Of a stretch of DNA of 64,000 bases, positions 27,058-34,280 are shown in pieces; positions within the stretch are counted from its first letter, which is position 1; each line of letters begins with the position of its first letter. The position numbers were made by a program, and so were the translations under genes. The notes beneath the pieces are model-generated. The model saw only the letters and a program-made list of their open reading frames with translations. It was not told where the DNA came from and did no database searches. The stretch comes from Escherichia coli (lineage in GTDB: Bacteria; Pseudomonadota; Gammaproteobacteria; Enterobacterales; Enterobacteriaceae): assembly GCF_030384885.1 (NCBI RefSeq), contig NZ_CP128613.1; one strand, given 5' to 3'.

Positions 27058-27114
27058 GCAGATAGCAAAAAAGCGCCTTTAGGGCGCTTTTTTACATTGG
27101 TGGGTCGTGCAGGA
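27058..27114. repeat. 57-bp direct repeat copy 1 (terminator hairpin plus 17-nt 3' end of tRNA-Lys)
   Basis: Identical to 27214..27270; contains aaaaaagcgcctttagggcgctttttt and tggtgggtcgtgcagga. Confidence 0.8.
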
Positions 27115-27213
27115 TGACTCGCTTCGCTCGCCCTTCGGGCCGTCGCCGCGAGCGGCTCCGTTGTTTCGCTGCGCTCAACTCGAACCTGCTGCAGGTTCGA
27201 ATCTTTGAGTATC

Positions 27214-27270
27214 GCAGATAGCAAAAAAGCGCCTTTAGGGCGCTTTTTTACATTGGTGGGTCGTGCAGGA
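27214..27270. repeat. 57-bp direct repeat copy 2 (overlaps the genuine lysV 3' end and its terminator)
   Basis: Exact 57/57 identity with 27058..27114 by direct comparison. Confidence 0.8.
27223..27250 (-). terminator. Rho-independent terminator of the valU-valX-valY-lysV operon
   Basis: On minus strand gcgcc-ctaaa-ggcgc hairpin followed by tttttt immediately after lysV CCA. Confidence 0.7.
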
Positions 27271-29324: not shown

Positions 29325-29342
29325 TTAGCGCATAAAAGATAA

Positions 29343-29371
29343 ACGGCAGGAGAGATACCCCTGCCGTTTTT
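29343..29371. terminator. Rho-independent terminator after gltX
   Basis: cggcagg...cctgccg hairpin followed by tttttt. Confidence 0.6.
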
Positions 29372-29374
29372 TAT

Positions 29375-29767
29375 TTATTCTGATTCATCTATGTCGAGAC
29401 GAGCAAGGAAATGACGAATTCCTTCACGTGACAAAAATTGCGCAACTTTTTCCTGCTCACTGTGAGTCATGTTGTCTATTGCGCTGATGATTTGCCGATA
29501 AGCGGGAGTGCGAATCCCCGGTGCATATTCGGCAAGGGGTTCTTCGGCTTCCAGAAGCATCGGCGTGTTATGGAAGGCTGGTGTATTCTGAATAAACTCG
29601 CAAACTTGCGTATCGATCAGAATAAGTCTGGCGCGACCGCCTTTCACGCCGGGAAATTTTTCCGTTTTCCAGCCTTTCTCTCTGATCCAACGGTTAACAG
29701 TTTGTTTAGCCACACCGAGGCATTCCGCCAGTTCTTCGGTGGTCATTTTATTGCGTAATCTTTTCAT
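29375..29767 (-). CDS. yfeD: Small putative DNA-binding protein, paralog of YfeC
   Basis: 130-aa ORF; N-terminal HTH-like segment clearly similar to the adjacent yfeC product. Confidence 0.7.
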   Translation of the reverse strand: MKRLRNKMTTEELAECLGVAKQTVNRWIREKGWKTEKFPGVKGGRARLILIDTQVCEFIQNTPAFHNTPMLLEAEEPLAEYAPGIRTPAYRQIISAIDNMTHSEQEKVAQFLSREGIRHFLARLDIDESE

Positions 29768-29768
29768 A

Positions 29769-30128
29769 TTATTTGCTATCGCGAATCCCTAAGCGTTGTA
29801 ATAACCCGATAATCCCTTCCCGCAGAAGCAAGGATGTAAACTGTTTTTGTTCAACTGGCGTCATCTCTTTCGCCAGTGTCACCAGTAACACTTCAAGCGG
29901 CGTATCACCAGACAGGGCAGGTGCTTCTCCCTGACCTTCCGGACGTTCAGCATTGCGAATATATTCACGAACCTGTTCATTGACGTGAACCAGTCTGGCT
30001 TTGCCACCCTGGACGCCTGGTTTTGGTGACGTCGTCCAGCCTTCCTTGCGTACCCATTTATTAATGGTCTGACGGCTATAACCGGTCAGTCTGGCAAGTT
30101 CATCTGGCGTCATCCTCTCCTTGAACAT
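29769..30128 (-). CDS. yfeC: Small putative DNA-binding protein, paralog of YfeD
   Basis: 119-aa ORF immediately upstream of yfeD (1-nt gap), same strand. Confidence 0.7.
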   Translation of the reverse strand: MFKERMTPDELARLTGYSRQTINKWVRKEGWTTSPKPGVQGGKARLVHVNEQVREYIRNAERPEGQGEAPALSGDTPLEVLLVTLAKEMTPVEQKQFTSLLLREGIIGLLQRLGIRDSK

Positions 30129-30348
30129 AACAATTCCCTGAATGTATGTAGGTCTATTAGCGGTTCATTTTATAACACCACTTTACAGGAAACCGTGACA
30201 TGAATAACTACTGAATGCGAGCGGTTTTCCAAAATTGTTCATTTGCCTGATTTTTCAGCGATTGAAACTACACGCTGCAATTTGCCGTTGACACATTCGG
30301 GCGGAATTCATATGATGCCGCCCGTCAACTCGACAAGCTTTACGTGAT

Positions 30349-30424
<76 letters not shown>

Positions 30425-30463: not shown

Positions 30464-30539
<76 letters not shown>

Positions 30540-30575: not shown

Positions 30576-30745
30576 TCTCTGCCTTTTGCCGCTTTTGTAA
30601 TACAGTCTACATCCTGGCAGTGCCGTGTGGTGAATGCATCACTGACTGAAAAAACAGCAACAGGCTGGCCCCTGTTTGCTTCGCGATGCGAATAAACTTA
30701 TTATTTGTGTGCCTGAAAACCCCGATCAGTGAGAGTAGTGTACTC

Positions 30746-32935
30746 ATGTTTGTGGAGCATAACCTGATAAAAAATATCAAGATATTCACACTAGCGTTTA
30801 CGCTCACCGTGGTACTTATTCAGCTATCCCGTTTTATTTCGCCACTTGCCGTTATCCATTCCAGTTATATCTTTTTGGCGTGGATGCCACTGTGCGTAAT
30901 GCTGGCAATCTTGTTTATCTTTGGCTGGCGCGGTGTCGTTCCTGTTTTAGGCGGGATGTTTTGCACCAATCTGTGGAATTTTCATCTCTCTTTTTTACAG
31001 AACTCCGTCATGCTCGGCAGCCAGACGTTTGCAGTCCTGTGTGCCTGTGCAATATTACGCTGGCAATTGGGAACGCGTTGGCGTTATGGTTTGACCAGCC
31101 GATACGTCTGGCAACGTCTCTTCTGGCTTGGTTTGGTGGCACCGATTGGCATCAAATGCAGCATGTATCTTGTGGGGAATTTCTTTGATTTTCCGCTAAA
31201 GATATCTACCTTTTTCGGCGATGCGGATGCCATTTTCACGGTCGTTGATTTGCTAAGCCTTTTCACCGCAGTGCTGATTTACAACATGCTGTTTTACTAT
31301 CTCACCCGCATGATTGTAAGTCCCCACTTTGCGCAGATCCTGTGGCGCAGGGATATCGCTCCGTCGTTGAGCAAAGAGAAACGCGTATTTACCTTAAGCT
31401 GGCTGGCAGCTCTTAGCGTGCTGCTACTTCTGATGTGTACACCGTATGAAAATGACTTCATTGCCGGTTACCTGGTACCTGTTTTCTTTATCATCTTTAC
31501 CCTCGGGGTCGGTAAGCTTCGCTATCCGTTTTTAAATCTCACCTGGGCTGTTTCAACGCTTTGCCTTCTGAATTACAACCAGAACTTTTTGCAAGGGGTA
31601 CAAACCGAATATTCGCTGGCATTTATTCTCGCGGTGCTGATTTCCTTTAGTGTTTGCCTGCTCTATATGGTGCGCATTTATCATCGTAGTGAATGGCTTA
31701 ACCGACGCTGGCATTTGCAGGCGCTGACCGATCCGTTAACGCTCTTACCCAACTTTCGCGCGTTGGAACAAGCACCAGAGCAAGAGGCTGGCAAGAGTTT
31801 TTGCTGCCTGCGTATTGATAACCTTGAGTTTATGAGTCGTCATTACGGGTTAATGATGCGCGTTCACTGTATCCGCTCAATTTACCGTACGTTAATGCCG
31901 CTGATGCAGGAAAACGAAAAGTTGTATCAATTGCCGGGGAGTGAACTGCTATTAGTACTGAGCGGGCCGGAAACGGAAGGGCGACTCCAGCATATGGTTA
32001 ACATCCTGAATAGTCGGCAAATTCACTGGAACAATACCGGGCTGGATATGGGCTATGGTGCTGCCTGGGGGCGTTTTGATGGAAATCAGGAAACCCTGCA
32101 ACCCTTGTTGGGGCAGTTAAGCTGGCTGGCGGAGCAATCCTGCGCACATCATCATGTGCTGGCGCTGGATAGCAGAGAGGAGATGGTTTCCGGGCAGACC
32201 ACTAAACAGGTGCTATTGCTGAATACCATTCGCACGGCGTTAGATCAGGGGGATTTGCTGCTCTACGCCCAGCCAATTCGCAACAAAGAGGGTGAAGGTT
32301 ATGATGAGATCCTCGCGCGACTGAAATATGACGGCGGCATTATGACCCCGGATAAGTTTCTGCCCCTTATTGCTCAGTTTAACCTTAGCGCGCGTTTTGA
32401 TTTGCAAGTGCTGGAATCCCTGTTGAAGTGGCTGGCAACACACCCCTGCGACAAGAAAGGTCCGCGCTTTTCAGTCAATTTAATGCCGCTCACGCTGCTG
32501 CAAAAAAATATTGCCGGGCGGATTATTCGTCTGTTTAAGCGTTATCACATCTCCCCGCAGGCGGTCATTCTTGAGATCACCGAGGAACAGGCGTTTTCTA
32601 ACGCAGAAAGCAGTATGTACAACATCGAGCAGCTGCATAAGTTTGGTTTCCGGATTGCGATTGATGATTTTGGCACCGGCTATGCCAACTACGAACGGCT
32701 AAAGCGTTTGCAGGCTGATATCATTAAAATTGATGGCGTCTTTGTGAAAGATATCGTCACGAACACGCTGGATGCGATGATTGTGAGATCAATTACCGAT
32801 CTGGCGAAAGCGAAGTCATTGAGTGTGGTCGCGGAGTTTGTCGAGACGCCACAGCAGCAGGCGCTATTGCATAAGCTCGGGGTGCAATATCTGCAAGGGT
32901 ATTTGATTGGTCGCCCTCAGCCATTAGCTGATTAA
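30746..32935 (+). CDS. pdeA: c-di-GMP phosphodiesterase with degenerate GGDEF and EAL domains and N-terminal MASE membrane domain
   Basis: Track ORF trimmed to MFVEHNLIKNI... giving 729 aa; multi-TM N-terminus and EAL-type C-terminus. Confidence 0.75.
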   Translation: MFVEHNLIKNIKIFTLAFTLTVVLIQLSRFISPLAVIHSSYIFLAWMPLCVMLAILFIFGWRGVVPVLGGMFCTNLWNFHLSFLQNSVMLGSQTFAVLCACAILRWQLGTRWRYGLTSRYVWQRLFWLGLVAPIGIKCSMYLVGNFFDFPLKISTFFGDADAIFTVVDLLSLFTAVLIYNMLFYYLTRMIVSPHFAQILWRRDIAPSLSKEKRVFTLSWLAALSVLLLLMCTPYENDFIAGYLVPVFFIIFTLGVGKLRYPFLNLTWAVSTLCLLNYNQNFLQGVQTEYSLAFILAVLISFSVCLLYMVRIYHRSEWLNRRWHLQALTDPLTLLPNFRALEQAPEQEAGKSFCCLRIDNLEFMSRHYGLMMRVHCIRSIYRTLMPLMQENEKLYQLPGSELLLVLSGPETEGRLQHMVNILNSRQIHWNNTGLDMGYGAAWGRFDGNQETLQPLLGQLSWLAEQSCAHHHVLALDSREEMVSGQTTKQVLLLNTIRTALDQGDLLLYAQPIRNKEGEGYDEILARLKYDGGIMTPDKFLPLIAQFNLSARFDLQVLESLLKWLATHPCDKKGPRFSVNLMPLTLLQKNIAGRIIRLFKRYHISPQAVILEITEEQAFSNAESSMYNIEQLHKFGFRIAIDDFGTGYANYERLKRLQADIIKIDGVFVKDIVTNTLDAMIVRSITDLAKAKSLSVVAEFVETPQQQALLHKLGVQYLQGYLIGRPQPLAD

Positions 32936-32996
32936 CAGGCGTAAAAAAAGCAGGGAATTATCCCCGGCTTTTGTGGCTGATGACAAACAGAAAAAT

Positions 32997-33025
32997 GCCT
33001 GATGCGCTACGCTTATCAGGCCTAC
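32997..33025. repeat. REP element
   Basis: gcctgatgcgctacgcttatcaggcctac, classic REP palindrome, flanked on both sides by hairpin-T-tract terminators. Confidence 0.55.
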
Positions 33026-33037
33026 ATGGAATTGAAG

Positions 33038-33055
33038 CCGGGGAATTATCCCCGG
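33038..33055. other. Palindrome ccGGGGaattatCCCCgg matching the GGGG(N6)CCCC target preference of IS186; unoccupied here
   Basis: Sequence read directly; a degenerate copy GGG-aattat-CCCC lies at about 32953..32965. Confidence 0.5.
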
Positions 33056-33077
33056 CTTTTTAATTAATGAATTGGAC

Positions 33078-34280
33078 TTACAGCACCAGTGCTGCGATTG
33101 ACGCAGACAGCACACTCACCAGAGTAGAGCCGTAAACCAGTTTCAGACCGAAGCGAGAAACCACGTTACCTTGCTCTTCATTCAGGCCTTTAACCGCACC
33201 GGCGATAATCCCGATAGAAGAGAAGTTAGCGAAGGAAACCAGGAACACGGAGATGATGCCTTCAGCACGCGGAGAGAGCGTGGAAGCGATTTTCTGCAGA
33301 TCCATCATCGCAACGAACTCGTTGGAAACCAGTTTGGTCGCCATAATACTGCCCACCTGCAGTGCTTCACTGGAAGGAACACCCATCACCCACGCAACCG
33401 GATAGAAGATGTAGCCCAGGATGCCCTGGAAGGAGATGCTGTAGCCAAACCAGCCAGTCACAGTGGCAAACAGTGCGTTCAGCGCAGCGATCAGGGCGAT
33501 AAAGCCGATCAGCATCGCGGCAACGATAATGGCAACTTTGAAACCTGCCAGAATGTATTCACCCAGCATTTCGAAGAAGCTCTGACCTTCGTGCAGGTTG
33601 GACATCTGAATGTTTTCTTCACTGGCATCAACACGGTAAGGGTTGATCAGCGACAGCACGATAAAGGTGCTGAACATGTTCAGTACCAGCGCCGCAACGA
33701 CGTATTTCGGCTCCAGCATCGTCATGTATGCACCAACGATGGACATCGACACGGTGGACATCGCCGTAGCTGCCATGGTGTACATACGATTGCGGGAGAT
33801 TTTGCCGAGGATATCTTTATAGGCAATAAAGTTTTCAGACTGACCCAGAATCAGAGAGCTGACGGCGTTGAAGGATTCCAGTTTGCCCATACCGTTGACT
33901 TTGGAGAGCAGGAAACCAATTGCGCGGATAATCACCGGCAACACGCGAATGTGCTGGAGAATACCGATCAGCGCAGAGATAAAGACGATTGGGCACAGCA
34001 CTTTCAGGAAGAAGAATGCCAGGCCTTGATCATTCATGCTACCAAAGACGAAGTTAGTCCCTTCGTTGGCAAATCCGAGCAGTTTCTCAAACATTTCGGA
34101 GAAGCCTTTCACGAAGCCCAAACCAACGTCGGAGTTCAGGAAGAACCACGCCAGTAACACTTCGATAACAAGCAGTTGAATAACATAACGGATACGAATT
34201 TTTTTGCGGTCGCTGCTTACCAGCAGTGCGAGAATCGCAACAACGGCAAGTGCCAGTACAAAATGAAGGACGCGGTCCAT
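33078..34280 (-). CDS. nupC: Nucleoside:H+ symporter (CNT family)
   Basis: Track ORF trimmed to [20 protein letters not shown]... giving 400 aa. Confidence 0.9.

Follow-up and report, generated by a model that had tools for sequence, protein, structure and literature searches.

Escherichia coli yfeC and yfeD as a probably co-transcribed pair of diverged paralogous transcription factors from an ancient tandem duplication

How did two small and visibly similar genes come to stand end to end beside gltX in Escherichia coli, how old is that arrangement, and what do the two products do now? The stretch of DNA that was analysed, which we call the window (64,000 nt at its full length), carries both genes on its minus strand. 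On the coding strand yfeC is the upstream gene (29769..30128; 119 aa, with the ATG at 30128 and the stop codon TAA at 29769-29771) and yfeD the downstream one (29375..29767; 130 aa), and both coding sequences are supported by the list of open reading frames, by the Pfam family PF07037 and by RefSeq, that of yfeD also by a comparison of rates. A sequence-only reading had described two adjacent ORFs on one strand with a gap of 1 nt and had named them yfeD and yfeC, and both points hold. Read directly from the sequence, the junction is TAA-T-ATG (29765..29771, minus strand), in which the lone base 29768 separates the yfeC stop from the yfeD start, and the names agree with the RefSeq labels of both ORFs in strain 2013C-4282, where the stretch is 100% identical, and with their K-12 counterparts, yfeC being b2398 and yfeD b2399. 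In K-12 the YfeC protein is annotated as a DNA-binding dual regulator. We propose that the two genes form a co-transcribed, probably coupled pair of diverged paralogous transcription factors that arose by an ancient duplication, and we hold this reading to be quite probable.

Downstream of yfeD lies the convergent gltX, and upstream of yfeC a 220-nt intergenic region is followed by the divergent tRNA-Ala genes alaW-alaX (30349-30424 and 30464-30539, plus strand) and then by pdeA. The placement between gltX and the alaW-alaX tRNA genes is common to K-12, 2013C-4282 and Cedecea. Some further features of the surroundings may be recorded here. The mechanical ORF of pdeA (plus strand) spans 30686-32935, 749 aa from the ATG at 30686, and its annotated CDS spans 30746-32935 (729 aa, 2190 nt); an RtT RNA element lies at 27098-27223 (minus strand), after the valU-valX-valY-lysV tRNA operon on the far side of gltX; and K-12 has an IS186 between nupC and pdeA (L002:2274-3618), with no insertion at that place in the window strain (32936-33100).

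The similarity of the two proteins extends over both of their halves. Aligned by BLASTP, YfeC and YfeD have 48/130 identities (37%, E 3e-27), and their Smith-Waterman score of 207 compares with 27.2 ± 4.8 for 2000 shuffles (z = 37.8), so that the identity is far above background. The sequence-only reading had pointed to an N-terminal block of helix-turn-helix and wing residues and to a C-terminal block, EQ...LLREGI..L..RLGI. When the alignment was made half by half, z was 31 for the N-terminal and 10 for the C-terminal half, and since the observed score was reached by 0 shuffles in either half, both blocks are genuine. The whole 122-position profile of PF07037 (YfeC-like, formerly DUF1323; gathering cut-off 22.9 bits) matches YfeD with 204.3 bits (residues 8-129) and YfeC with 171.8 bits (residues 6-118). 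The one Pfam family and predicted architecture, the adjacency on one strand, and the existence of single-copy relatives beside gltX in two outgroup lineages bear out a tandem duplication as the origin of the pair. The pair, its family membership and its paralogy are already recorded publicly (Pfam, K-12 b2398/b2399, PMC8464067), and what had been observed and interpreted from the letters alone is correct, ordinary and nothing new.

The distribution of the single and the duplicated state gives this duplication its context. When 1.84 billion representative proteins were searched exhaustively with the family profile, 246 matched at E 1e-3 or better, among them many fragments or unrelated multi-HTH repeat proteins, and the named homologues all belong to the Enterobacteriaceae or to Chimaeribacter (Yersiniaceae). 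The repeat proteins (P0285, P0289, P0302 and about 60 others) are 200-1300 aa long with 3-13 tandem generic helix-turn-helix units; they match dozens of HTH families and were discarded as noise rather than counted as family members. In a scan of 100,044 species, each represented by a single genome, 282 stretches matched, and the best 80 of these 282 loci, when inspected, comprised 77 tandem pairs, one triplet, and two that end before the second gene, the tandem arrangement being found in 78/78 scorable Enterobacteriaceae species loci from that best 80. It is seen also in Cedecea and two further lineages, and within E. coli the locus is present in 5425/5426 genomes. Single copies were found in two places. 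Chimaeribacter has one YfeC-like gene in the order mntH, nupC, a formate/nitrite-transporter gene, the YfeC-like gene and convergent gltX, and on contig L085 one copy adjoins a gltX whose product is 74% identical to E. coli GltX. Both singletons score nearer the upstream than the downstream copy in 78/78 genomes.

The duplication is, on these comparisons, to be read as ancient and not recent, because DNA identity between the two genes is no more than about 60%, the two proteins inside one genome are 32-49% identical, and the pair is present in every scorable species locus. The simplest history would probably be that one ancestral gltX-adjacent gene underwent tandem duplication in the ancestry of the Enterobacteriaceae. 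We infer this timing with a qualification: yfeD changes faster, so that the singletons would look yfeC-like even had the duplication come before the outgroups split off, with one copy disappearing afterwards, and the faster yfeD could thereby mimic the pattern. A younger event is seen in Enterobacter sp. BIGb0383 (L051:4001-5144), which has three family members in tandem, their junctions overlapping as ATGA; the third gene arose by a recent duplication of the downstream gene, that of the yfeD type.

The two copies have changed at very different rates. Between species the identity of yfeC has a mean of 74%, and the upstream copies group together in one tight, monophyletic clade, while yfeD has a mean of 54% and a minimum of 30% and is the less conserved copy in 99% of species pairs. 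The median omega is nonetheless about 0.10 for yfeC and for yfeD, and both genes are under strong purifying selection. Compared with yfeC, yfeD has about 2x the dN and about 2x the dS; with both quantities approximately doubled and omega equal, its faster change does not come from relaxed constraint. After the duplication, the upstream copy would have stayed near the ancestral sequence and evolved slowly, and the downstream copy would have diverged about twice as fast with purifying selection still acting on it.

The junction itself is conserved. In 54 of 78 species the stop and the start are exactly 1 nt apart, and in 77 of 78 they are at most 9 nt apart or overlap; from this conserved tight junction we argue that the pair is most likely co-transcribed and that the translation of yfeD is probably coupled to that of yfeC. 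The anatomy of the locus would provide for one transcript, from a promoter upstream of yfeC to a hairpin terminator common to the convergent yfeD and gltX (29341..29369, both strands). This terminator, found by a terminator scan, has a 12-bp stem and a U-rich tract on each strand, and its RNA fold has an energy of -21.8 kcal/mol (z -4.9). The putative promoter is an extended -10-like element, TGTTATAAA (30169..30177, minus strand), about 45 nt upstream of the first yfeC ATG (ATG1), and the block TGnTATAAn at this position is conserved in an alignment of 16 genera. A Shine-Dalgarno-like AGGGA (30135..30139, minus strand) stands 6 nt upstream of ATG1, and CAGGGAAT/CAGGAAAT, of the AGGGA/AGGAA type, is kept across most of 75 orthologous upstream sequences. 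With a gap of 1 nt, one indel would fuse the yfeC and yfeD frames. Two single ORFs, P0005 (209 aa, from an ENA contig) and P0418 (249 aa, from a Franconibacter cluster), apparently fuse YfeC-like and YfeD-like parts, and they may be either sequencing errors or real fusions.

The 220-nt intergenic region upstream of yfeC is common to the divergent alaW-alaX promoter (30288..30316, plus strand; TTGACA, 17 nt, TATGAT, with 11/12 matches in a promoter scan), which is strongly conserved in the 16-genus alignment. A search for repeats upstream of yfeC that might form an operator found weak, short repeats only. Between the yfeC and alaW promoters, at about 30211-30234 (alignment columns ~118-137), there is a palindrome, TTGCGAGC-(2-4 nt)-GCTCGCAA, which is conserved in Yokenella, Enterobacter, Klebsiella, Phytobacter and others, with its left half degenerate in E. 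coli, Citrobacter and Salmonella, and which may be a candidate regulator site.

The start of yfeC has been annotated in two ways, K-12 having 114 aa (a CDS of 345 nt) from a second in-frame ATG, Met6 (30111..30113, minus strand), and PGAP placing the start at the first, which gives 119 aa. Of 75 distinct orthologous sequences, 74 have ATG1 and the remaining one has GTG in its place, codon 4 switches between GAG and GAA, and codon 5 is Arg in 73/75 by way of five synonymous codons. Synonymous variation of this kind in codons 4-5 points to constraint at the protein level, and hence the 119-aa form would be the conserved one. The start at ATG1 is thus supported over the 114-aa alternative.

Each protein is most likely a winged helix-turn-helix of the Mu/excisionase/MerR type followed by a linker and a helical hairpin. 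In YfeC the predicted winged helix-turn-helix comprises residues 6-60 (29949..30113, minus strand), in the order strand, helix, helix, strand, GVQGGKA wing, strand, helix, and the two-helix hairpin at the C-terminus comprises residues 77-112 (…EMTPVEQKQFTSLLLREGIIGLLQRLGI; 29793..29900, minus strand; AlphaFold pLDDT 92-95). The AlphaFold model of YfeC alone (pLDDT 81.8) has the winged helix-turn-helix from residue 5 to 60, then a disordered linker, then the hairpin. For YfeD the regions come from a fused AlphaFold model, in which the winged helix-turn-helix comprises residues 8-62 with the wing GVKGGRA (29582..29746, minus strand; pLDDT 75-88) and the hairpin residues 88-123 (29399..29506, minus strand; helices 237-247 and 251-272 of the fusion). 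The disordered linker is longer in YfeD than in YfeC in the AlphaFold models. Both paralogues keep the hairpin motif LLREGI.G.L.RLGI, and the hairpin probably has a role in dimerisation.

The MerR-like winged-helix fold is also that of the N-terminal domains of excisionase/Xis, BldC and MerR proteins (PF12728 HTH_17, TIGR01764), and of these models PF12728 matches YfeD with 31.1 bits. The MerR-type Pfam models (PF13411/PF00376) match neither protein at E 0.1 or better. MerR regulators have a long antiparallel coiled coil and an effector-binding domain, whereas both are absent from YfeC and YfeD, the models of which have the linker, a hairpin of about 35 residues and nothing after it. The PGAP label 'MerR family' on YfeD therefore holds at the level of the superfamily only. 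Excisionase/Xis proteins have an integrase partner, unlike YfeC and YfeD; there is no integrase or mobile element beside the pair, its neighbours being gltX, the tRNA operons and pdeA.

The closest sequence relatives of the family are the DNA-binding domains of Mu-type repressors and transposases. The Pfam model PF02316 (HTH Mu-type; structures 1qpm/1g4d and 1tns) gives 14.7 bits, under its cut-off of 23.3, and searches of the PDB with single sequences found nothing for YfeD and marginally MuA only for YfeC, so that a family profile was needed. Run against PDB sequences, that profile has as its top two matches the MuA N-terminal domain (1tns, E 5e-5) and the Mu c repressor (E 0.018), and the wing signature GW...GVKGGKA is common to the family and to both of these proteins. 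With a profile of Mu-type repressors as the target, hhalign aligns YfeC 5-110 with Mu Rep 16-133 (97.7%, E 1.9e-12), and the DNA-binding domain alone still gives 97.1%. The hairpin alone aligns co-linearly with residues 98-133 of the Mu repressor at 41% (E 2.8e-4), compared with 1-10% for mismatched controls. From these profile comparisons, the homology of the DNA-binding domain to Mu-type proteins appears solid if remote, and that of the C-terminal part to the Mu repressor is suggestive. In addition, the Chimaeribacter singleton matches PHROG 7148 'transcriptional repressor' over residues 4-110.

The family also differs from these phage proteins in several ways. The Mu repressor has 196 aa, whereas YfeC and YfeD have about 120-130 aa and are without its C-terminal third; and the Mu repressor and MuA belong to a transposable phage, while YfeC and YfeD are stand-alone chromosomal core genes without transposase or phage neighbours. 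A tblastn search with YfeC found no match in phage records, that with the singleton matched the N-terminus of Mu gene A only, and the matches in plasmid records were mislabelled chromosomes or chromosomal fragments only; on this evidence the family is not mobile at present. One such record, a linear 198-kb 'plasmid unnamed1' (NZ_CP070008.1), carries mntH-nupC-pdeA-alaXW-yfeC and a truncated yfeD in a segment that abuts IS5075, Tn3 and IS26 and has many frameshifted genes; it is either a misassembly or an IS-mediated capture. One might suppose that the family is a domesticated, C-terminally shortened descendant of a Mu-type transposable-phage repressor that was fixed beside gltX in some early enterobacterial lineage and then duplicated, yfeD becoming a recombining, dimorphic partner. 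We regard this as a possible but rather doubtful history. If it were true, the DNA-binding domain and the oligomerisation helices would both have been inherited from the phage repressor, and E. coli would maintain the linker-plus-hairpin of yfeD in two deep allele classes.

These allele classes are plain in the E. coli records. Compared with the yfeD allele of the window, 2,243 records are at least 95% identical, 3,184 are at 80-90% (the K-12 type) and none lies between, while yfeC is at least 95% identical in every E. coli record. The window strain belongs to the minority class: its yfeD has 88% DNA identity to that of K-12, and the proteins of the two strains differ at 1 residue in YfeC and at 11 in YfeD. 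The divergent segment has sharp limits, at about 29,388-29,627, in the 3' two-thirds of yfeD; it covers the linker and hairpin and not the winged helix-turn-helix, and within it the identity between window and K-12 is 81-85%. The lowered identity runs on into the terminator region, towards 29271. To E. whittamii and other cryptic-clade genomes the K-12 segment shows 95-99% identity, where its flanks reach 85-92%; of the fetched loci, E. albertii comes closest to the window-type segment, at 86%. That the K-12-type segment is nearer to the cryptic clades than its flanks are suggests recombination and long-lived allele classes at yfeD.

With regard to function, the published ChIP-exo data list 50 rows for YfeC, with a TTC-rich inverted-repeat motif with a 6-nt spacer, and a yfeC deletion strain has 205 differentially expressed genes (PMC8464067). 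For YfeD there are 43 rows (PMC8464067 supplement). When the two sets of tables in PMC8464067 are compared, which cover one condition and tagged proteins, so that the two may bind jointly elsewhere, they have one coincident peak, at 3332954 (NC_000913.2) in ispB/rplU/sfsB. The YfeC peaks are about 30 bp wide, those of YfeD about 9 bp. The unrelated factor YciT peaks less than 100 nt from 3332954, and the ispB/rplU/sfsB peak may be a ChIP hot spot. The sfsB gene at this peak presumably encodes a Ner-like, Mu-related protein. A further peak, assigned to yfeC (2516052-2516085, NC_000913.2), would, as we place it, fall some 400 nt upstream, at the 3' end of alaX, rather than at the promoter of yfeC. 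ChIP artefacts commonly arise at tRNA genes. As for regulation within the pair, yfeD mRNA is up by a log2FC of 4.3 (~20-fold) in the yfeC deletion (PMC8464067), which is a weak indication that YfeC probably lowers the expression of yfeD and could also come from a polar effect of the deletion.

A different reading of the same data is that YfeC and YfeD are an obligate heterodimer or hetero-oligomer that pairs through the C-terminal hairpins, its subunit ratio being fixed by coupled translation. The retention of the pair in every scorable species, the tight junction, the hairpin motif present in both paralogues and the one ChIP-exo peak in common would all fit such a complex. That peak, however, is one coincidence among some 50 YfeC and 43 YfeD rows and perhaps a hot spot, the peak widths of the two proteins differ, and the single-copy relatives argue that the ancestor worked without a partner. 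A YfeC-(GGGGS)6-YfeD AlphaFold fusion, made with a 46-row species-paired alignment, had a pTM of 0.33, so that its halves are not confidently packed, a crude and not decisive result of a single fused model that lends the complex no support. On balance we consider an obligate complex unlikely. We return instead to the reading of two diverged regulators, in which the N-terminal winged helix-turn-helix binds DNA, as the published ChIP-exo data show, the C-terminal helical hairpin would probably dimerise each protein, and YfeC and YfeD, now at largely different sites, would represent a regulator that has been sub- or neo-functionalised, YfeC perhaps lowering yfeD expression too.

Two other explanations can be set beside these. 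RASTA-Bacteria listed it in 2007 as a high-confidence new toxin-antitoxin candidate from gene size and arrangement (PMC2374986), and the genes do resemble a type II operon in being small, adjacent on one strand and coupled by a stop/start junction, with an HTH in one product. In type II operons, however, the two products are not of one kind, whereas YfeC and YfeD are paralogues with the same DNA-binding architecture and without a toxin domain: searches of Pfam, NCBIfam and PADLOC found no toxin domain in either protein and gave HTH-type matches only, and PF15943 'YdaS_toxin' matches weakly (E 0.0015 and 0.039, below cut-off) and over the HTH helices only. Toxin-antitoxin and defence-system readings were rejected. 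The yfeC deletion strain, moreover, grew and was profiled while yfeD was up 20-fold, which is indirect evidence that YfeD is not a toxin restrained by YfeC, and the strong purifying selection on both genes, the single-copy relatives, and the near-universal presence of the locus in the E. coli core genome, with no phage record and with chromosomal fragments only among plasmid records, likewise stand against a toxin-antitoxin pair, to which we give almost no credence. The matches of the family profile to Mu-type c repressors and to the MuA N-terminal domain, and that of the Chimaeribacter protein to PHROG 7148, could alternatively mean that the genes are leftover repressor genes of a decayed Mu-like prophage with no present function for the host. 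However, there are no other phage genes on either side, the gene order with gltX and the tRNA operons is kept from genus to genus, and the GC content of the pair is 47-50% against 49.7% for the window; the genes are, with omega near 0.1, maintained by selection, and their ChIP-exo and RNA-seq effects have been published (PMC8464067). A functionless remnant is accordingly very improbable.

Our analysis presented herein therefore leaves yfeC and yfeD as a pair of paralogous transcription factors, and it adds to the public record the context that the duplication is probably as old as the Enterobacteriaceae and that the copies differ strongly in rate despite equal constraint. The toxin-antitoxin prediction of 2007 is now poorly supported. 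For annotators it is useful that the conserved start of yfeC would give a protein of 119 aa, and for those who work on these regulators, that E. coli has two deep yfeD allele classes, the differences between which are confined to the part of the protein that does not bind DNA.
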